Under the pieces are notes generated by a model. That model saw nothing but the letters and a program-made list of their open reading frames with translations, made no database searches and had not been told where the DNA came from. This document shows positions 1-29,908 of a stretch of 29,908 bases of DNA, piece by piece; positions within the stretch are counted from its first letter, which is position 1, and each line of letters starts with the position of its first letter. The position numbers were made by a program, and so were the translations under genes. The DNA lies in the NCBI RefSeq assembly GCF_003334315.1, contig NZ_QOWR01000056.1, one strand, 5' to 3'. Origin of the DNA: Escherichia coli (GTDB lineage Bacteria > Pseudomonadota > Gammaproteobacteria > Enterobacterales > Enterobacteriaceae).

Positions 1-149
1 GGTTGAGAAGCGGTGTAAGTGAACTGCAGTTGCCATGTTTTACGGCAGTGAGAGCAGAGATAGCGCTGATGTCCGGCGGTGCTTTTGCCGTTACGCACCA
101 CCCCGTCAGTAGCTGAACAGGAGGGACAGCTGATAGAAACAGAAGCCAC
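1..149 (-). CDS. insA: IS1 InsA N-terminal part (partial, runs off the window)
   Basis: GTG start at 147..149 on the minus strand; translation [49 protein letters not shown] matches the InsA N-terminus (zinc-finger CxxC...CxxC) from recall. Confidence 0.7.
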
Positions 150-204
150 TGGAGCACCTCAAAAACACCATCATACACTAAATCAGTAAGTTGGCATCAT
201 CACC
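1..204 (-). mobile_element. IS1 insertion sequence, left end (IRL plus start of insA), partial; continues beyond the window start
   Basis: Reverse complement of 1..204 matches the IS1 left end from recall (GGTGATG[A/C]TGCCAACTTACTGATTTAGTGTATGATGGTGTTTTTGAGGTGCTCCAGTGGCTTCT...), with one mismatch in the terminal inverted repeat. The bcsE reading frame changes character exactly at position 204/205. Confidence 0.85.
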
Positions 205-711
205 AAAAAGTGAACGGTATTCCTCAAGCAACAATGAAAATTGTTTATCGTTATTATTTCCGGGATTAATTACCAAAAGCGAACAATGGTTTAACCTGCT
301 CCATTTATTCATTTTATCCAACCATGAGCGAAGCCGCTCGGCAGGAATGTTTTGCCATGCGTTATTTGCGCAAACAAGAATAAAAAGGTAATTATGGGGA
401 TCAATAGAACACTGCAAATCACGGGTCAAATAGTATAGACCTTTTTCATGATTTAGCATTGAAAATAATTTTATTTTTTCCGGCCCTTGAGAATCATCTA
501 ATTGAAAGATTTTCGCCGGATCGCTGTCCATGCTAATGACCGCGACGTGTGCGGTTTCAGCCTGGGATGCAATTGTTTGATTCGCCAGACTGATAGCATC
601 TTCATGGCGATCGACGTTAAACCACCAGACGCCGCCTGCTGGCATATGTCGCAGCTCATCCCATAATGATGAGATACCGATAGAGAATACAGGGTCCACA
701 ATGTCCCTCAT
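205..711 (-). pseudogene. bcsE: bcsE 5' fragment (codons 1-169 of a ~523-codon gene) truncated by the IS1 insertion
   Basis: ATG at 709..711 on the minus strand; translation MRDIVDPVFSIGISSLWDELRHMPAGGVWWFNVDRHEDAISL...EEYRSLF matches the BcsE N-terminus. The six-frame ORF 178..711 continues 8 codons into IS1 (GDDANLLI) and then stops. Confidence 0.8.
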
Positions 712-983
712 GTCACCATTTTGTCTGATTATCAGTTTACTAGCGAAAGCTAAGAAATAAACCTACCATTGAAATTAAAACTTATCAGATTTAGCATGTG
801 AATCAATTTAGAAGGTCACAAGACGTGTGATTTTAGTCTTTTCGTTTTTAACTTTTTCTGTTGCGTAACGGAAAGTCAAAAAGTGAGCAAATTCCCGTCT
901 CGCCGTAAACAATAAACCGGCGAAATGCTCACGGTTAGAATTGTCTCATGAACGGTACAGTTATTTCATAGGGATCAAGCAAA

Positions 984-1172
984 ATGAATAACAATGAACC
1001 AGATACTCTGCCTGATCCCGCGATAGGCTATATCTTCCAGAATGATATTGTGGCGTTAAAGCAGGCATTTTCACTGCCTGATATTGATTATGCCGATATT
1101 TCCCAACGCGAACAGTTGGCCGCGGCATTAAAACGCTGGCCGTTGCTGGCAGAGTTTGCGCAACAAAAGTAG
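984..1172 (+). CDS. bcsR: Cellulose biosynthesis protein BcsR (YhjR), 62 aa
   Basis: ORF 984..1172, translation MNNNEPDTLPDPAIGYIFQNDIVALKQAFSLPDIDYADISQREQLAAALKRWPLLAEFAQQK; sits immediately upstream of bcsQ, divergent from bcsE. Confidence 0.85.
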   Translation: MNNNEPDTLPDPAIGYIFQNDIVALKQAFSLPDIDYADISQREQLAAALKRWPLLAEFAQQK

Positions 1173-1183
1173 GGGATTGGTGA

Positions 1184-1936
1184 ATGGCCGTACTGGGATT
1201 GCAGGGGGTGCGGGGAGGCGTGGGGACAACAACCATCACCGCCGCATTAGCCTGGTCATTACAAATGTTGGGAGAAAATGTTCTGGTGGTCGATGCCTGC
1301 CCGGACAACTTGTTGCGCCTGTCATTTAATGTTGATTTTACCCACCGTCAGGGCTGGGCCAGAGCGATGCTGGATGGCCAGGACTGGCGTGACGCTGGGT
1401 TGCGCTACACCTCGCAGCTCGATTTGCTGCCTTTTGGTCAGTTATCCATTGAAGAACAAGAAAATCCACAGCACTGGCAAACCCGGCTGAGCGATATTTG
1501 CTCCGGCTTACAGCAACTAAAAGCCAGCGGGCGTTACCAGTGGATTTTAATCGACTTACCGCGTGATGCCTCGCAGATAACCCACCAGCTGCTGAGTTTG
1601 TGCGATCACTCGCTGGCAATCGTCAATGTGGATGCCAACTGCCATATCCGACTGCATCAGCAAGCGCTGCCGGATGGCGCACATATTTTGATTAATGACT
1701 TCCGTATTGGCAGTCAGGTTCAGGACGATATTTACCAGCTTTGGTTGCAAAGCCAGCGCCGATTGCTGCCGATGCTCATTCATCGTGATGAAGCGATGGC
1801 TGAATGCCTGGCGGCTAAGCAACCAGTCGGTGAATACCGCAGTGATGCGCTGGCGGCTGAAGAGATACTGACGCTGGCGAACTGGTGCCTGTTGAACTAC
1901 TCCGGGCTGAAAACGCCAGTCGGGAGTGCATCATGA
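1184..1936 (+). CDS. bcsQ: Cellulose synthase operon protein BcsQ, ParA/MinD-family ATPase, 250 aa, intact
   Basis: ORF 1184..1936; deviant Walker A GVRGGVGTTT near the N-terminus. Codon 6 is TTG (Leu), not the TAG reported for K-12. Stop overlaps the bcsA start (ATGA). Confidence 0.9.
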   Translation: MAVLGLQGVRGGVGTTTITAALAWSLQMLGENVLVVDACPDNLLRLSFNVDFTHRQGWARAMLDGQDWRDAGLRYTSQLDLLPFGQLSIEEQENPQHWQTRLSDICSGLQQLKASGRYQWILIDLPRDASQITHQLLSLCDHSLAIVNVDANCHIRLHQQALPDGAHILINDFRIGSQVQDDIYQLWLQSQRRLLPMLIHRDEAMAECLAAKQPVGEYRSDALAAEEILTLANWCLLNYSGLKTPVGSAS

Positions 1937-4551
1937 GTATCCTGACCCGGTGGTTGCTTATCCCGCCGGTCAACGCGCGGCTTATCGGGCGTTATCGCGA
2001 TTATCGTCGTCACGGTGCGTCGGCTTTCAGCGCGACGCTCGGCTGTTTCTGGATGATCCTGGCCTGGATTTTTATTCCGCTGGAGCACCCGCGCTGGCAG
2101 CGTATTCGCGCAGAACATAAAAACCTGTATCCGCATATCAACGCCTCGCGTCCGCGTCCGCTGGACCCGGTCCGTTATCTCATTCAAACATGCTGGTTAT
2201 TGATCGGTGCATCGCGCAAAGAAACGCCGAAACCGCGCAGGCGGGCATTTTCAGGTCTGCAAAATATTCGTGGACGTTACCATCAATGGATGAACGAGCT
2301 GCCTGAGCGCGTTAGCCATAAAACACAGCATCTTGATGAGAAAAAAGAGCTCGGTCATTTGAGTGCCGGGGCGCGGCGGTTGATCCTCGGTATCATCGTC
2401 ACCTTCTCGCTGATTCTGGCGTTAATCTGCGTTACTCAACCGTTTAACCCGCTGGCGCAGTTTATCTTCCTGATGCTGCTGTGGGGTGTAGCGCTGATCG
2501 TACGGCGGATGCCGGGGCGCTTCTCGGCGCTAATGTTGATTGTGCTGTCGCTGACCGTTTCTTGCCGTTATATCTGGTGGCGTTACACCTCTACGCTGAA
2601 CTGGGACGATCCGGTCAGCCTGGTGTGCGGGCTTATTCTGCTCTTCGCTGAAACGTACGCGTGGATTGTGCTGGTGCTCGGCTACTTCCAGGTAGTATGG
2701 CCGCTGAATCGTCAGCCGGTGCCATTGCCGAAAGATATGTCGCTGTGGCCGTCGGTGGATATCTTTGTCCCGACTTACAACGAAGATCTCAACGTGGTGA
2801 AAAATACTATTTACGCCTCGCTGGGTATCGACTGGCCGAAAGACAAGCTGAACATCTGGATCCTCGATGACGGCGGTAGGGAAGAGTTTCGCCAGTTTGC
2901 GCAAAACGTGGGGGTGAAATATATCGCCCGTACCACTCATGAACATGCGAAAGCGGGCAACATCAACAATGCGCTGAAATATGCCAAAGGCGAGTTCGTG
3001 TCGATTTTCGACTGCGACCACGTACCAACGCGATCGTTCCTGCAAATGACCATGGGCTGGTTCCTGAAAGAGAAACAGCTGGCGATGATGCAGACTCCAC
3101 ACCACTTCTTCTCGCCGGACCCGTTTGAACGCAACCTGGGGCGTTTTCGTAAAACACCGAACGAAGGCACGCTGTTCTATGGTCTGGTGCAGGATGGCAA
3201 CGATATGTGGGACGCCACTTTCTTCTGCGGTTCCTGTGCGGTGATTCGTCGTAAGCCGCTGGATGAAATTGGCGGCATTGCTGTCGAAACCGTGACTGAA
3301 GATGCGCATACTTCTCTGCGTTTGCACCGTCGTGGCTATACCTCCGCGTATATGCGTATTCCGCAGGCGGCGGGGCTGGCGACCGAAAGTCTGTCGGCGC
3401 ATATCGGTCAGCGTATTCGCTGGGCGCGCGGGATGGTACAAATCTTTCGTCTCGATAACCCGCTCACCGGTAAAGGACTGAAGTTTGCTCAGCGGCTGTG
3501 CTACGTCAACGCCATGTTCCACTTCTTGTCGGGCATTCCACGGCTGATCTTCCTGACTGCGCCGCTGGCGTTCCTGCTGCTTCATGCCTACATCATCTAT
3601 GCGCCAGCGTTGATGATCGCCCTATTCGTGCTGCCGCATATGATCCATGCCAGCCTGACCAACTCCAAGATCCAGGGCAAATATCGCCACTCTTTCTGGA
3701 GTGAAATCTACGAAACGGTGCTGGCGTGGTATATCGCACCACCGACGCTGGTGGCGCTGATTAACCCGCACAAAGGCAAATTTAACGTCACCGCCAAAGG
3801 TGGACTGGTGGAAGAAGAGTACGTCGACTGGGTGATCTCGCGGCCCTACATCTTCCTTGTCCTGCTCAACCTGGTGGGCGTTGCGGTAGGCATCTGGCGC
3901 TACTTCTATGGCCCGCCAACCGAGATGCTCACCGTGGTCGTCAGTATGGTGTGGGTGTTCTACAACCTGATTGTTCTTGGCGGCGCAGTTGCGGTATCGG
4001 TAGAAAGCAAACAGGTACGCCGATCGCACCGCGTGGAGATGACGATGCCCGCGGCAATTGCCCGCGAAGATGGTCACCTCTTCTCGTGTACCGTTCAGGA
4101 TTTCTCCGACGGTGGTTTGGGGATCAAGATCAACGGTCAGGCGCAGATTCTGGAAGGGCAGAAAGTGAATCTGTTGCTTAAACGCGGTCAGCAGGAATAC
4201 GTCTTCCCGACCCAGGTGGCGCGCGTGATGGGTAATGAAGTTGGGCTGAAATTAATGCCGCTCACCACCCAGCAACATATCGATTTTGTGCAGTGTACGT
4301 TTGCCCGTGCGGATACATGGGCGCTCTGGCAGGACAGCTACCCGGAAGATAAGCCGCTGGAAAGTCTGCTGGATATTCTGAAGCTCGGCTTCCGTGGCTA
4401 CCGCCATCTGGCGGAGTTTGCGCCTTCTTCGGTGAAGGGCATATTCCGTGTGCTGACTTCTCTGGTTTCCTGGGTTGTATCGTTTATTCCGCGCCGCCCG
4501 GAGCGGAGCGAAACGGCACAACCATCGGATCAGGCTTTGGCTCAACAATGA
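1933..4551 (+). CDS. bcsA: Cellulose synthase catalytic subunit BcsA (GT2 glycosyltransferase with C-terminal PilZ domain), 872 aa
   Basis: ATG at 1933 (MSILTRWLL...) inside the longer six-frame ORF 1885..4551. GT2 motifs visible (DDG, DCD, TED, QRIRW) and PilZ c-di-GMP motifs RRSHR and DFSDGG. Length matches the K-12 protein from recall. Confidence 0.95.
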   Translation: MSILTRWLLIPPVNARLIGRYRDYRRHGASAFSATLGCFWMILAWIFIPLEHPRWQRIRAEHKNLYPHINASRPRPLDPVRYLIQTCWLLIGASRKETPKPRRRAFSGLQNIRGRYHQWMNELPERVSHKTQHLDEKKELGHLSAGARRLILGIIVTFSLILALICVTQPFNPLAQFIFLMLLWGVALIVRRMPGRFSALMLIVLSLTVSCRYIWWRYTSTLNWDDPVSLVCGLILLFAETYAWIVLVLGYFQVVWPLNRQPVPLPKDMSLWPSVDIFVPTYNEDLNVVKNTIYASLGIDWPKDKLNIWILDDGGREEFRQFAQNVGVKYIARTTHEHAKAGNINNALKYAKGEFVSIFDCDHVPTRSFLQMTMGWFLKEKQLAMMQTPHHFFSPDPFERNLGRFRKTPNEGTLFYGLVQDGNDMWDATFFCGSCAVIRRKPLDEIGGIAVETVTEDAHTSLRLHRRGYTSAYMRIPQAAGLATESLSAHIGQRIRWARGMVQIFRLDNPLTGKGLKFAQRLCYVNAMFHFLSGIPRLIFLTAPLAFLLLHAYIIYAPALMIALFVLPHMIHASLTNSKIQGKYRHSFWSEIYETVLAWYIAPPTLVALINPHKGKFNVTAKGGLVEEEYVDWVISRPYIFLVLLNLVGVAVGIWRYFYGPPTEMLTVVVSMVWVFYNLIVLGGAVAVSVESKQVRRSHRVEMTMPAAIAREDGHLFSCTVQDFSDGGLGIKINGQAQILEGQKVNLLLKRGQQEYVFPTQVARVMGNEVGLKLMPLTTQQHIDFVQCTFARADTWALWQDSYPEDKPLESLLDILKLGFRGYRHLAEFAPSSVKGIFRVLTSLVSWVVSFIPRRPERSETAQPSDQALAQQ

Positions 4552-4561
4552 TGATAACGCG

Positions 4562-6901
4562 ATGAAAAGAAAACTATTCTGGATTTGTGCAGTGGCTATG
4601 GGGATGAGTGCGTTCCCCTCTTTCATGACGCAGGCGACGCCAGCAACGCAACCACTGATCAATGCTGAGCCAGCTGTAGCCGCCCAGACGGAACAAAATC
4701 CGCAGGTGGGGCAAGTGATGCCGGGCGTGCAGGGCGCTGATGCGCCAGTCGTGGCGCAGAACGGTCCTTCGCGTGATGTGAAGCTGACCTTTGCGCAAAT
4801 TGCACCGCCGCCGGGCAGCATGGTGCTACGTGGCATTAACCCGAACGGCAGCATTGAGTTTGGTATGCGCAGCGATGAAGTGGTGACGAAGGCGATGCTC
4901 AACCTCGAATACACCCCATCGCCATCGTTACTGCCTGTCCAGTCGCAGTTAAAGGTTTATCTCAATGATGAACTGATGGGCGTGCTGCCAGTGACCAAAG
5001 AACAGTTGGGTAAAAAAACGCTGGCGCAAATGCCCATTAACCCACTGTTTATTACCGACTTCAACCGTGTACGGCTGGAGTTTGTCGGCCATTATCAGGA
5101 CGTGTGCGAAAACCCGGCCAGCACCACGCTTTGGCTGGATGTTGGGCGGAGCAGTGGACTGGATCTGACCTATCAGACCCTGAATGTGAAGAATGACCTG
5201 TCACACTTCCCGGTGCCATTCTTTGACCCGCGCGATAACCGTACTAACACCTTGCCGATGGTCTTTGCGGGTGCGCCGGATGTTGGGCTGCAACAAGCCT
5301 CTGCCATTGTCGCCTCGTGGTTTGGTTCGCGTTCTGGCTGGCGTGGGCAGAACTTCCCGGTGCTCTATAACCAACTGCCGGATCGTAATGCCATTGTCTT
5401 TGCAACCAACGACAAACGGCCGGACTTCCTGCGCGATCATCCGGCGGTAAAAGCCCCGGTGATTGAGATGATTAACCATCCGCAGAATCCTTACGTCAAA
5501 CTGCTGGTGGTGTTTGGTCGTGACGACAAAGACCTGTTGCAGGCAGCGAAAGGTATCGCTCAGGGTAACATTCTGTTCCGTGGTGAAAGCGTGGTAGTGA
5601 ATGAAGTGAAACCGCTGCTACCGCGTAAGCCGTACGATGCGCCGAACTGGGTACGTACCGATCGTCCGGTCACATTTGGCGAACTGAAAACCTATGAAGA
5701 ACAGTTACAATCCAGCGGTCTTGAGCCAGCAGCGATTAACGTTTCGCTAAACCTGCCGCCGGATCTCTACCTGATGCGCAGTACCGGCATTGATATGGAT
5801 ATTAATTACCGCTACACCATGCCGCCGGTGAAAGACAGTTCGCGGATGGATATCAGCCTGAATAACCAGTTCCTGCAATCCTTCAACCTGAGCAGCAAAC
5901 AGGAGGCGAACCGCCTGCTGCTGCGGATTCCGGTATTACAAGGTTTGCTGGATGGCAAAACAGATGTCTCTATTCCGGCGCTGAAACTGGGCGCGACCAA
6001 CCAGCTGCGCTTCGACTTTGAGTATATGAACCCGATGCCGGGCGGTTCGGTGGATAACTGTATTACCTTCCAGCCGGTGCAGAATCATGTGGTGATTGGT
6101 GACGACTCCACCATCGACTTCTCGAAGTATTACCACTTCATCCCGATGCCGGATCTACGCGCCTTTGCTAACGCGGGCTTCCCATTCAGCCGGATGGCGG
6201 ATCTGTCGCAAACCATCACCGTGATGCCGAAAGCGCCTAACGAAGCACAGATGGAAACGTTGCTGAATACTGTTGGTTTTATCGGCGCACAGACGGGCTT
6301 CCCGGCGATTAATCTGACGGTGACCGATGATGGCAGCACCATTCAGGGCAAAGATGCCGACATCATGATCATCGGTGGTATCCCGGACAAACTGAAAGAC
6401 GATAAGCAGATCGACCTATTGGTGCAGGCGACCGAAAGCTGGGTGAAAACACCGATGCGCCAGACCCCGTTCCCCGGCATTGTGCCGGACGAGAGCGATC
6501 GCGCGGCAGAAACCCGGTCAACGCTGACCTCTTCCGGTGCGATGGCGGCGGTGATTGGCTTCCAGTCGCCGTATAACGACCAGCGCAGCGTGATTGCGCT
6601 GTTGGCAGATAGCCCACGCGGTTATGAAATGCTTAACGATGCGGTGAACGATAGCGGCAAACGCGCCACCATGTTCGGTTCGGTCGCGGTGATCCGCGAG
6701 TCCGGTATCAACAGCCTACGTGTTGGCGACGTTTATTACGTAGGTCATCTGCCGTGGTTCGAGCGCGTGTGGTATGCGCTGGCAAACCATCCGATTCTGC
6801 TGGCGGTGCTGGCGGCTATCAGTGTGATATTGCTGGCATGGGTACTGTGGCGTCTGCTGCGAATTATTAGTCGTCGTCGTCTTAACCCGGATAACGAGTA
6901 A
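4562..6901 (+). CDS. bcsB: Cellulose synthase periplasmic subunit BcsB, 779 aa
   Basis: ATG at 4562 (MKRKLFWICAVAMGMSAFPSFMTQA..., signal-peptide-like) inside six-frame ORF 4475..6901; C-terminal hydrophobic anchor; 10 bp after the bcsA stop. Confidence 0.95.
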   Translation: MKRKLFWICAVAMGMSAFPSFMTQATPATQPLINAEPAVAAQTEQNPQVGQVMPGVQGADAPVVAQNGPSRDVKLTFAQIAPPPGSMVLRGINPNGSIEFGMRSDEVVTKAMLNLEYTPSPSLLPVQSQLKVYLNDELMGVLPVTKEQLGKKTLAQMPINPLFITDFNRVRLEFVGHYQDVCENPASTTLWLDVGRSSGLDLTYQTLNVKNDLSHFPVPFFDPRDNRTNTLPMVFAGAPDVGLQQASAIVASWFGSRSGWRGQNFPVLYNQLPDRNAIVFATNDKRPDFLRDHPAVKAPVIEMINHPQNPYVKLLVVFGRDDKDLLQAAKGIAQGNILFRGESVVVNEVKPLLPRKPYDAPNWVRTDRPVTFGELKTYEEQLQSSGLEPAAINVSLNLPPDLYLMRSTGIDMDINYRYTMPPVKDSSRMDISLNNQFLQSFNLSSKQEANRLLLRIPVLQGLLDGKTDVSIPALKLGATNQLRFDFEYMNPMPGGSVDNCITFQPVQNHVVIGDDSTIDFSKYYHFIPMPDLRAFANAGFPFSRMADLSQTITVMPKAPNEAQMETLLNTVGFIGAQTGFPAINLTVTDDGSTIQGKDADIMIIGGIPDKLKDDKQIDLLVQATESWVKTPMRQTPFPGIVPDESDRAAETRSTLTSSGAMAAVIGFQSPYNDQRSVIALLADSPRGYEMLNDAVNDSGKRATMFGSVAVIRESGINSLRVGDVYYVGHLPWFERVWYALANHPILLAVLAAISVILLAWVLWRLLRIISRRRLNPDNE

Positions 6902-6907
6902 TTGAAG

Positions 6908-8014
6908 ATGAATGTGTTGCGTAGTGGAATCGTGACGATGCTGCTGCTGGCTGCCTTTAGTGTTCAGGCAGCCTGTACCTGGCCTGCCTGGGAGCAGTTT
7001 AAAAAGGATTACATCAGTCAGGAAGGGCGCGTCATCGACCCCAGCGACGCGCGCAAAATCACCACCTCCGAAGGGCAAAGTTACGGTATGTTCTTTGCCC
7101 TGGCGGCTAACGACCGTGCAGCTTTCGATAATATTCTCGACTGGACGCAGAACAATCTCGCTCAGGGTTCTTTAAAAGAAGGTTTGCCCGCCTGGCTGTG
7201 GGGTAAGAAAGAGAACAGTAAGTGGGAAGTGCTGGACAGCAATTCGGCCTCCGATGGTGATGTCTGGATGGCCTGGTCATTGCTGGAGGCGGGGCGTTTG
7301 TGGAAAGAGCAGCGTTATACCGACATCGGCAGCGCGTTGCTAAAACGTATCGCGCGGGAGGAAGTGGTGACGGTGCCTGGGCTGGGTTCCATGTTGTTAC
7401 CGGGCAAAGTGGGTTTTGCTGAGGATAACAGCTGGCGTTTTAACCCCAGCTACCTGCCGCCGACGCTGGCGCAGTATTTCACCCGCTTTGGCGCGCCGTG
7501 GACTACGCTGCGCGAAACCAATCAACGTTTATTGCTGGAAACCGCCCCGAAAGGCTTTTCGCCAGACTGGGTGCGCTATGAGAAAGACAAAGGCTGGCAG
7601 CTAAAAGCCGAAAAAACATTGATCAGCAGCTACGACGCTATCCGCGTTTACATGTGGGTAGGCATGATGCCTGACAGCGATCCGCAAAAAGCGCGGATGC
7701 TCAACCGGTTTAAACCGATGGCGACATTCACTGAGAAAAACGGTTATCCGCCGGAAAAAGTGGATGTGGCTACGGGGAAAGCGCAGGGTAAAGGACCGGT
7801 CGGTTTTTCTGCCGCCATGCTGCCTTTTTTACAAAACCGCGATGCGCAGGCCGTTCAGCGCCAGCGCGTGGCCGATAACTTTCCCGGCAGCGATGCCTAT
7901 TACAACTATGTGCTGACCCTGTTTGGACAAGGCTGGGATCAACACCGTTTCCGCTTCTCGACAAAAGGTGAGTTATTACCTGACTGGGGCCAGGAATGCG
8001 TAAATTCACACTAA
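6908..8014 (+). CDS. bcsZ: Endo-1,4-beta-glucanase BcsZ (GH8 family), 368 aa
   Basis: ATG at 6908 ([21 protein letters not shown], signal peptide); the track ORF starts 2 codons earlier at a TTG. Length matches K-12 BcsZ from recall. Confidence 0.9.
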
Positions 8015-11000
8015 ACATATTCACACTTTCCCTCGGTCTGGCCGTCATGCCGATGGTCGAGGCAGCACCAACCGCTCAGCAACAGTTGCTGGAGCAAGTT
8101 CGGTTAGGTGAAGCGACCCATCGTGAAGATCTGGTGCAACAGTCGTTATATCGGCTGGAACTTATTGATCCGAATAACCCGGACGTCGTTGCCGCCCGTT
8201 TCCGTTCTTTGTTACGTCAGGGCGATATTGATGGCGCGCAAAAACAGCTCGATCGGCTGTCTCAGTTAGCGCCGAGTTCAAATGCGTATAAATCGTCGCG
8301 GACTACGATGCTACTTTCCACGCCGGATGGTCGTCAGGCACTGCAACAGGCAAGATTGCAGGCGACTACCGGTCATGCGGAAGAAGCTGTGGCGAGTTAC
8401 AACAAACTGTTCAACGGTGCGCCGCCGGAAGGTGACATTGCTGTCGAGTACTGGAGTACGGTGGCGAAAATTCCGGCTCGCCGTGGCGAAGCGATCAATC
8501 AGTTAAAACGCATCAATGCGGATGCACCGGGCAACACGGGCCTGCAAAACAATCTGGCGCTATTGCTGTTTAGTAGCGATCGGCGTGACGAAGGCTTTGC
8601 CGTTCTGGAACAAATGGCGAAATCGAACGCCGGACGCGAGGGGGCCTCTAAAATCTGGTACGGGCAGATTAAAGACATGCCCGTCAGCGATGCCAGTGTG
8701 TCGGCGCTGAAAAAATATCTTTCGATCTTTAGCGATGGCGATAGCGTGGCGGCTGCACAATCGCAACTGGCAGAACAGCAAAAACAGCTGGCCGACCCTG
8801 CTTTCCGCGCTCGTGCGCAAGGTTTAGCGGCGGTGGACTCTGGTATGGCGGGTAAAGCCATTCCCGAACTACAACAGGCAGTGCGGGCGAACCCGAAAGA
8901 CAGTGAGGCTCTGGGGGCGCTGGGCCAGGCATATTCACAGAAAGGCGATCGCGCCAATGCAGTGGCGAATCTGGAAAAAGCCCTCGCACTGGACCCGCAC
9001 AGCAGCAACAACGACAAATGGAACAGTCTGCTGAAAGTAAACCGCTACTGGCTGGCGATCCAGCAGGGCGATGCTGCGCTGAAAGCCAATAATCCTGACC
9101 GGGCAGAACGCCTGTTCCAGCAGGCGCGTAATGTCGATAACACCGACAGTTATGCAGTGCTGGGGCTGGGCGATGTGGCGATGGCGCGCAAAGATTACCC
9201 CGCCGCTGAACGCTATTATCAGCAGACCCTGCGGATGGACAGCGGCAACACTAACGCCGTGCGCGGGCTGGCGAATATTTATCGCCAGCAGTCGCCAGAA
9301 AAAGCTGAAGCGTTTATCGCCTCGCTCTCTGCCAGCCAGCGGCGCAGCATTGATGATATCGAACGCAGCCTGCAAAACGACCGTCTGGCACAGCAGGCAG
9401 AGGCACTGGAAAACCAGGGCAAATGGGCGCAGGCGGCAGCACTTCAGCGGCAACGACTGGCGCTGGACCCCGGCAGCGTATGGATTACTTACCGACTTTC
9501 GCAGGATCTCTGGCAGGCCGGACAACGCAGCCAGGCTGATACGTTAATGCGCAATCTGGCGCAGCAGAAGCCGAATGACCCGGAGCAGGTTTACGCTTAC
9601 GGGCTGTATCTCTCTGGTCATGACCAGGACAGAGCGGCGCTGGCGCATATCAACAGCCTGCCGCGCGCGCAGTGGAACAACAATATTCAGGAGCTGGTTA
9701 ATCGCCTGCAAAGCGATCAGGTGCTGGAAACCGCTAATCGCCTGCGAGAAAGCGGCAAAGAAGCTGAAGCGGAAGCGATGCTGCGCCAGCAACCGCCCTC
9801 CACGCGTATTGACCTCACGCTGGCTGACTGGGCGCAGCAGCGACGTGATTACACCGCCGCCCGCGCTGCATATCAGAATGTCCTGACGCGGGAGCCAACT
9901 AACGCCGATGCCATTCTGGGGCTGACGGAAGTGGATATTGCTGCCGGTGACACAGCGGCAGCACGTAGCCAGCTGGCGAAACTGCCCGCTACCGATAACG
10001 CCTCGCTGAACACACAGCGGCGCGTGGCGCTGGCACAGGCACAGCTTGGAGATACCGCAGCGGCGCAGCAGACGTTTAATAAGTTGATCCCGCAGGCAAA
10101 ATCTCAGCCACCGTCGATGGAAAGCGCGATGGTGCTGCGCGACGGTGCGAAGTTTGAAGCGCAGGCGGGCGATCCAAAGCAGGCGCTGGAAACCTACAAA
10201 GACGCTATGGTCGCATCCGGTGTGACTACGACGCGTCCGCAGGATAACGACACCTTTACCCGACTGACCCGTAACGACGAGAAAGATGACTGGCTGAAAC
10301 GCGGCGTGCGCAGCGATGCGGCGGACCTCTATCGCCAGCAGGATCTTAACGTCACCCTTGAGCATGATTATTGGGGATCGAGCGGCACCGGTGGTTACTC
10401 CGATCTGAAAGCGCACACCACTATGTTGCAGGTGGACGCGCCGTATTCTGACGGGCGGATGTTCTTTCGCAGTGATTTCGTCAATATGAACGTCGGCAGT
10501 TTCTCCACGAATGCCGATGGCAAATGGGATGACAACTGGGGCACCTGTACATTACAGGACTGTAGCGGCAACCGCAGCCAGTCGGATTCCGGTGCCAGCG
10601 TGGCGGTCGGCTGGCGAAATGACGTCTGGAGCTGGGATATCGGCACCACGCCGATGGGCTTCAACGTGGTGGATGTGGTCGGCGGCATCAGTTACAGCGA
10701 TGATATCGGGCCGCTGGGTTACACCGTTAACGCCCACCGTCGGCCCATCTCCAGTTCTTTGCTGGCCTTTGGTGGGCAAAAAGACTCCCCGAGTAATACC
10801 GGGAAAAAATGGGGCGGTGTGCGTGCGGACGGCGTGGGGCTAAGCCTGAGCTACGATAAAGGTGAAGCAAACGGCGTCTGGGCATCGCTTAGTGGCGACC
10901 AGTTAACCGGTAAAAATGTCGAAGATAACTGGCGCGTGCGCTGGATGACGGGCTATTACTATAAGGTCATTAACCAGAACAATCGCCGCGTCACAATCGG

Positions 11001-11469
11001 CCTGAACAACATGATCTGGCATTACGACAAAGATCTGAGTGACTACTCACTCGGTCAGGGCGGTTACTACAGTCCGCAGGAATACCTGTCGTTTGCCATA
11101 CCGGTGATGTGGCGGGAGCGCACGGAAAACTGGTCGTGGGAGCTGGGTGCGTCTGGCTCGTGGTCGCATTCACGCACCAAAACCATGCCGCGTTATCCGC
11201 TGATGAATCTGATCCCGACCGACTGGCAGGAAGAAGCTGCGCGGCAATCCAACGATGGCGGCAGCAGTCAGGGCTTCGGCTACACGGCGCGGGCATTACT
11301 TGAACGACGTGTTACTTCCAACTGGTTTGTTGGCACGGCAATTGATATCCAGCAGGCGAAAGATTACGCACCCAGCCATTTCCTGCTCTACGTACGTTAT
11401 TCCGCCGCCGGATGGCAGGGTGACATGGATTTACCGCCGCAGCCGCTGATACCTTACGCCGACTGGTAA
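7996..11469 (+). CDS. bcsC: Cellulose synthase outer-membrane/TPR subunit BcsC, 1157 aa
   Basis: ORF 7996..11469 with AGGA Shine-Dalgarno; signal peptide, Ala/Leu/Gln-rich TPR-like N-terminal two thirds and a Gly/Ser/Trp/Tyr-rich beta-barrel-like C-terminus; overlaps the bcsZ 3' end by 19 nt. Confidence 0.9.
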
Positions 11470-29588: not shown

Positions 29589-29908
29589 ATGGACCAGAAG
29601 CTGTTAACGGATTTCCGCTCAGAACTACTCGATTCACGTTTTGGCGCAAAGGCCATTTCTACTATCGCGGAGTCAAAACGATTTCCGCTGCACGAAATGC
29701 GCGATGATGTCGCATTTCAGATTATCAATGATGAATTATATCTTGATGGCAACGCTCGTCAGAACCTGGCCACTTTCTGCCAGACCTGGGACGACGAAAA
29801 CGTCCATAAATTGATGGATTTGTCGATCAATAAAAACTGGATCGACAAAGAAGAATATCCGCAATCCGCAGCCATCGACCTGCGTTGCGTAAATATGGTT
29901 GCCGATCT
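29589..29908 (+). CDS. gadA: Glutamate decarboxylase GadA, N-terminal part (runs off the window end)
   Basis: ATG at 29589 after TAAGGAG; translation [78 protein letters not shown]...; called gadA rather than gadB because it sits next to yhjA. Confidence 0.9.

Follow-up and report, generated by a model that had tools for sequence, protein, structure and literature searches.

An IS1 insertion after codon 169 of bcsE in an Escherichia coli contig, an apparently new allele of a recurrent kind

Introduction

Natural loss of cellulose through lesions in the bcs genes is well documented across E. coli, Shigella, and Salmonella. The O104:H4 strain of the 2011 outbreak is cellulose-negative, which is attributed to a natural frameshift in bcsE (PMC4287979). 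There a +1 C at codon 448 removes 78 residues from the protein; bcsRQABZC is intact. In K-12, cellulose is silenced by a single amber mutation in bcsQ (codon 6, TTG to TAG), which is repaired in AR3110 and which acts in a phylogroup A laboratory/commensal background. When bcsE, bcsF, or bcsG is deleted from AR3110 in a non-polar manner, the result in each case is a curli-only, cellulose-negative morphotype (PMC4287979). The effect of BcsE loss varies between reports, with BcsE described as “required” in AR3110 (PMC4287979) and as an “enhancer, needed for maximal production” elsewhere (PMC7439463); in other published work both BcsE and BcsF are enhancers, needed for maximal cellulose production. 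BcsG is the phosphoethanolamine (pEtN) transferase and also stabilises BcsA.

The N-terminal domain of BcsE (residues 1–217) is required for oligomerisation, BcsF-dependent membrane targeting, and stable assembly of the macrocomplex (PMC7439463), and BcsF docks on its central β-sheet (PMC11470070). Both c-di-GMP and BcsQ are bound by the GIL region, a degenerate REC-GGDEF tandem defined as residues 164–474 (PMC7439463); the C-terminal module has been solved as residues 217–523 (PMC7439463; PDB 6ybb/6tj0).

Here we describe a copy of bcsE, an accessory gene of biofilm cellulose production, interrupted by IS1 at the edge of a 29,908-nt stretch of Escherichia coli DNA (contig NZ_QOWR01000056.1, assembly GCF_003334315.1), referred to below as the window. 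Taken as a whole, the evidence makes it very likely that this is a simple IS1 insertion in a phylogroup-A-like E. coli, one that creates a bcsE null allele, is expected to lower bcsFG expression, and would leave the strain with little or no pEtN-cellulose. To a specialist neither the lesion nor its consequence is surprising, and no new mechanism is involved.

Results and discussion

Extent and context of the window

At one end the window opens within IS1; at the other it stops after 320 nt of gadA (29589–29908), a gene with a near-identical paralogue, gadB. Both ends thus lie in repeats, as expected of a complete short-read contig, and the window looks like one. That the remainder of IS1 is absent most likely reflects a limit of the assembly and not the biology of the strain. 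From position 5000 to its end (5000–29908) the window aligns at 100.0% with QL57EC, and also with several other E. coli chromosomes of 4.4–4.9 Mb. The genes from hmsP through ccp are all open at their annotated lengths. The 24.9 kb from bcsB to gadA matches more than 12 complete genomes at 100.0%, with isolates from pigs, chickens, frogs, a pangolin, seawater, and humans among them. These alignments show a bcsB–gadA haplotype that is, judged by sequence identity, very widely shared within its lineage.

The IS1 end

Positions 1–204 are the inverted left end of IS1 including the start of insA, as the initial annotation had proposed from the letters alone. On the minus strand, this stretch corresponds to IS1 nt 1–204, the IRL end (nt 565–768 of the element when read in window orientation), with 203/204 identity (99.5%), and it is cut by the window edge. 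The same IS1 stretch is annotated as an IS1/IS1A family transposase in related genomes. The terminal inverted repeat IRL, read directly from the sequence as GGTGATGATGCCAACTTACTGAT, occupies 182..204 on the minus strand; from 204 to 182 it agrees at 22 of 23 positions with the IS1 terminal repeat GGTGATGCTGCCAACTTACTGAT, as in members of the IS1 family. The 5′ part of insA lies at 1..149 (minus strand), with a GTG start at 149–147. Translated in frame, its 49 codons plus 2 nt between the GTG and the window edge end in ...TYTASQ. The GTG falls at IS1 nt 56, in keeping with the distance of about 55 nt from IRL seen in the IS1 family, and annotated IS1 copies have the same DNA over the insA stretch. 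insA and bcsE are read in the same direction.

Compared with 12 IS1 copies from related genomes, the sole mismatch is a T at window position 197; within the terminal inverted repeat, IS1 nt 8 is thereby A where the others have C. Of 20,395 E. coli records, 363 share this variant end, ATCC 8739 among them; T197 is thus a natural IS1 polymorphism, and a sequencing error was rejected on the same count. Strain 203740, the first record matched with the variant end, carries it at an unrelated locus. The A at IS1 nt 8 of IRL is also the base found at the equivalent position of IRR. A consensus scan of the junction for a hybrid outward promoter directed toward bcsR found none on the plus strand, and returned only the predicted insA promoter of IS1 itself, at 197–170 on the minus strand. 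T197 is the first base of the −35 hexamer in that predicted promoter.

The truncated bcsE

The bcsE reading frame begins with an ATG at 711–709 on the minus strand. Its remaining portion, 205..711, comprises 507 nt or 169 codons, equal to bcsE nt 1–507, and is 100% identical to the intact bcsE of strain 2013C-4991. The IRL end of IS1 follows directly after nt 507. According to the open reading frame list and alignment, the frame continues into IS1 as a hybrid ORF (178..711, minus strand) that encodes BcsE residues 1–170 followed by DDANLLI and ends at a TAG at 180–178. The product has 177 amino acids, 170 from BcsE and 7 encoded by IS1, and is thus about one third as long as the normal protein. 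A BLASTP comparison gave 170/170 identity with residues 1–170 of the 523-amino-acid BcsE (Pfam PF10995, CBP_BcsE). Because the terminal GGT of IS1 equals bcsE codon 170 (Gly), the junction can be placed only to within 3 nt (ACC, window 202–204). The earlier count of 169 BcsE codons followed by 8 IS1 codons therefore stands for the DNA, while the protein is better described as 170 BcsE residues and 7 foreign ones.

Reference BcsE does not naturally end near this position. It is 523 residues long, Pfam CBP_BcsE spans residues 6–514, and structures are available both for 217–523 and for the full-length protein (6ybb, 6tj0, 9fnn). With its ORF ending at BcsE residue 170 plus 7, the hybrid product retains almost nothing of the GIL region (164–474) and nothing of the C-terminal module (217–523), in agreement with the initial annotation, which had stated that the c-di-GMP-binding part is lost. 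What is missing includes the whole REC*-GGDEF* module at 217–523 with its c-di-GMP-binding RXXD I-site motif, together with the final 47 residues of the N-terminal domain, to which BcsF binds. Since it lacks both, the hybrid product should be non-functional, and from its coding capacity this bcsE copy is a predicted null allele, a pseudogene fragment.

The remainder of the bcs locus

The divergent intergenic (promoter) region between bcsE and bcsR, 712..983, is uninterrupted and collinear with an IS-free reference, from which window positions 205–1226 differ by one mismatch. Intact bcsR (984..1172, plus strand, 62 aa) encodes a protein identical to WP_001063318.1 of strain NT1N31, and intact bcsQ (1184..1936, plus strand, 250 aa) one identical to WP_000279528.1 of strain D72. 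The bcsA gene (1933–4551, plus strand) is open, with a product identical to WP_000025892.1 of strain NT1N31. Also on the plus strand, bcsB (4562–6901), bcsZ (6908–8014), and bcsC (7996–11469) are each open at the annotated length with only a terminal stop. The synthase operon bcsRQABZC is thus intact in the window, with bcsA to bcsC occupying 1933..11469. Codon 6 of bcsQ, at 1199–1201, is TTG and not the TAG of K-12, and BcsQ, BcsR, and BcsA are all identical to alleles annotated as intact. This bears out the earlier statement that the lesion is distinct from the K-12 amber, from which it differs in gene, operon, and type of mutation.

IS1 in bcsE of other genomes

The initial annotation had called the lesion strain-specific, which is correct for the exact junction and not for the kind of event. 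The junction after bcsE nt 507 was present in 0 of 5,426 complete E. coli genomes, and a junction pattern allowing the G/T variant and an offset of 0–1 nt gave 0 matches in species-representative genomes and metagenome contigs. IS1 was found in the same part of bcsE in at least 16 of the same 5,426 genomes, at no fewer than eight sites. Near the window site the element lies in the same orientation in 13 genomes and in the opposite one in 3, counts that come from two non-equivalent searches in which clonal relatedness was uncontrolled. Look-ups of exact products (the 177-aa hybrid, a version with the common end …GDAANLLI, and the NT1N31-type product) gave no match, and this negative carries little weight because the NT1N31-type product, which is present in RefSeq genomes, was missed too. 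In the literature we found no paper describing a bcsE::IS1 allele, only related natural bcs lesions.

The nearest of these insertions use a 9-bp target, CAAAAAGTG, that lies 1 bp from the window site and is occupied in six genomes, in both orientations. In NT1N31, NT1N34, D72, and S1-CAM-01-A, IS1 has the same orientation as in the window, sits 1 bp away, and is flanked by the 9-bp duplication of CAAAAAGTG; in MB10 and EC6 the element at this target is reversed. The NT1N31 and D72 copies of IS1 share only 95% identity. Elsewhere in the gene, IS1 occupies bcsE nt 462–470 in Q65, 468–476 in QL57EC, 521–529 in Ecol_517, 612–619 in Ecol_AZ147, ST540, B18271, and VG1046-3E9, and 1045–1052 in GmM062. 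LF3-1 carries an IS1 in the opposite orientation about 55 bp from the window site.

We inspected 12 bcsE::IS1 loci, those of 10 strains plus QL57EC and MB10. All 12 have a complete 768-bp IS1 followed by the distal part of bcsE, bcsF, and bcsG, with target duplications of 8 or 9 bp. These relatives share the element family and the gene with the window allele, mostly also the orientation and the position in the 5′ third of bcsE, and their N-terminal bcsE fragments run to about 150–205 codons (about 350 in GmM062). The window allele alone combines a junction after nt 507 with the T197 variant of IRL, neither of which occurs in the annotated bcsE::IS1 relatives.

A further difference lies in the rest of the locus. 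No second bcs lesion is visible in the window, whereas one was present in 10 of 15 relatives' loci inspected. The second lesions include stops or frameshifts in bcsQ and bcsG, a frameshifted and truncated bcsA, a second IS, and a deletion. In bcsQ, QL57EC carries W120* (G to A at the position of window 1543), NT1N31 a stop at codon 159, and GmM062 a stop at codon 24, while Ecol_AZ147, ST540, and B18271 have frameshifts. The three stops are independent lesions, and none is the K-12 codon-6 amber. Because many carriers also have bcsQ nonsense or frameshift mutations, bcsE::IS1 can be seen as one of several routine routes of decay. In QL57EC, the nearest haplotype, IS1 occupies another site in bcsE and bcsQ carries W120*, and for this reason the window allele reads as an independent event in a locus that often decays. 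Pseudogenes of the bcsE::IS1 type are already annotated in RefSeq genomes; by comparison with them the window allele is apparently new and its kind recurrent, one more instance of the repeated disruption of bcsE and its neighbours by IS1.

Simple insertion and its rivals

In the reading that we consider very probable, IS1 transposed into bcsE so that IRL came to lie directly after nt 507. By analogy with the relatives, the event was most probably a simple insertion that duplicated a target of 8 or 9 bp (AAAAAGTG or AAAAAGTGA), in which case the rest of bcsE would follow beyond the 768-bp element, with bcsF and bcsG after it. The far junction expected from such an event would join the IS1 IRR (GGTAATGACTCC...) to ...GGCAAGACCAAAAAGTG(A), and simple insertion would put ...CTGGCAAGACCAAAAAGTG(A) ahead of the IS1 IRR (GGTAATGACTCCAACTTA). 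The far side lies outside the window, whose edge is at IS1 nt 204, and this leaves room for a larger IS1-mediated rearrangement (a deletion, an inversion, or recombination between IS1 copies) in which distal bcsE, and perhaps bcsFG, would have been deleted or moved. There is a precedent at this very locus in VG1046-3E9, with a large deletion between two IS1 copies, and the inspected relatives are rich in IS1, with from 22 to at least 40 IS1-containing places per record. We nevertheless regard a rearrangement as unlikely, given that in 12/12 inspected loci distal bcsE follows directly on the IRR side, with a proper target duplication.

The window allele could also descend from the same ancestral insertion as those of D72, S1-CAM-01-A, and NT1N31 at CAAAAAGTG, with the 1-bp offset produced by a homopolymer error or deletion that reduced CCC to CC. 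The orientation is identical, and the junctions differ by a single C within a C-run (CACC/CAAAAAG versus CACC/AAAAAG, the slash marking the junction). Yet the T197 variant of IRL is absent from the IS1 copies of D72, S1-CAM-01-A, and NT1N31. The flanks also differ, with 23 mismatches to NT1N31 and 18 to S1-CAM-01-A in 3.1 kb, and the intergenic IS903B of D72 is absent from the window. The 9-bp target itself has been hit more than once, as shown by the opposite orientation in MB10 and by the 95% identity of the NT1N31 element to that of D72. Common descent with a one-base slip is thus quite improbable. A chimeric contig end that joins IS1 reads to an otherwise intact bcsE might be suspected from the two repeat-bound window ends, which are typical of a short-read contig. 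The join, however, sits exactly at the IS1 terminus, beside a proven IS1 target, and carries 204 bp of IS1, and the exact position of the join makes misassembly very unlikely indeed.

Polarity and predicted phenotype

IS1 insertions are classically polar, and polar IS1 mutations are known in the gal and lac operons. Under simple insertion, the preferred reading, ribosomes would no longer translate the distal part of bcsE. In the relatives, bcsE and bcsF overlap by 4 nt, as do bcsF and bcsG. Expression of bcsF and bcsG would be expected to fall because of the untranslated distal bcsE, these overlaps, and the polar nature of IS1, and polarity on both genes, which the initial annotation had considered likely, is plausible. 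As in the classical gal and lac mutations, IS1 lies in the first gene of an operon and the expected effect is Rho-dependent loss of downstream expression; unlike in those cases, polarity here is an expectation about genes that lie outside the window. As a counterpoint, some bcsFG expression could persist, driven by read-through or by transcription running outward from IS1.

With bcsE disrupted and bcsFG probably reduced, the strain should make little or no pEtN-cellulose despite its intact bcsRQABZC operon. On this analysis cellulose is expected to be strongly reduced and probably unmodified, which gives a predicted biofilm-matrix phenotype with cellulose reduced or absent. The closest parallel is the O104:H4 frameshift, likewise a natural loss of bcsE with intact bcsRQABZC. 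In contrast to the late frameshift of that strain, the window allele is cut by an IS at residue 170 and is probably also polar on bcsFG. As with the K-12 amber, a single lesion would account for the loss of cellulose; the window bcsQ is intact. A check for gene presence would miss this phenotype, since the synthase operon is complete. The case also bears on the prediction of rdar and cellulose phenotypes from draft genomes, in which contigs break exactly at such IS insertions.

Site preference and other IS events at bcs

The GC content of bcsE nt 391–510 is 30–33%, compared with 49% for the whole gene. IS1 prefers AT-rich targets, and the low GC of the site fits this preference. It is possible, though we hold this only tentatively, that bcsE nt ~460–530 is a true IS1 hot spot in which insertions are favoured by selection against pEtN-cellulose in commensal and livestock E. 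coli of phylogroup A. Consistent with this, the 9-bp target, 1 bp from the window allele, has taken at least two independent insertions, five IS1 sites fall within 70 bp, and second hits in bcs are frequent. In that case many convergent events would have occurred, the window allele among them.

IS elements also occupy other positions at the locus. A recurrent IS1 site lies in the bcsE–bcsR intergenic region, at window-equivalent 786–794 (CAGATTTAG), 75–83 bp upstream of the bcsE start. It was confirmed in 2013C-4991 only (locus L002, 3594–4361), and by match geometry (a 1,576-bp span in 3 pieces) it is apparently present in at least 25 complete genomes among the matches listed, which include human isolates of 5.4 Mb and animal isolates of 4.5–4.7 Mb. 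An IS1 at this position could break the link between the divergent bcs promoters or rewire them. D72 carries an IS903B in the same intergenic region besides its bcsE::IS1 (locus L008, 3901–4869). In HCP8S3_I1, IS1 lies in the 5′ end of bcsR with the duplication ATGAACCAG (locus L015, 3802–4569), and in strain 720632 it lies in the 5′ end of bcsQ with the duplication CGTGGGGA (locus L016, 4026–4793); bcsG is defective in both. VG1046-3E9 has two IS1 copies around a 152-bp bcsE remnant (locus L013, 2333–4019) and has lost the 5′ part of bcsE, bcsR, bcsQ, bcsA, bcsB, and bcsZ, into bcsC, through an IS1-mediated deletion.
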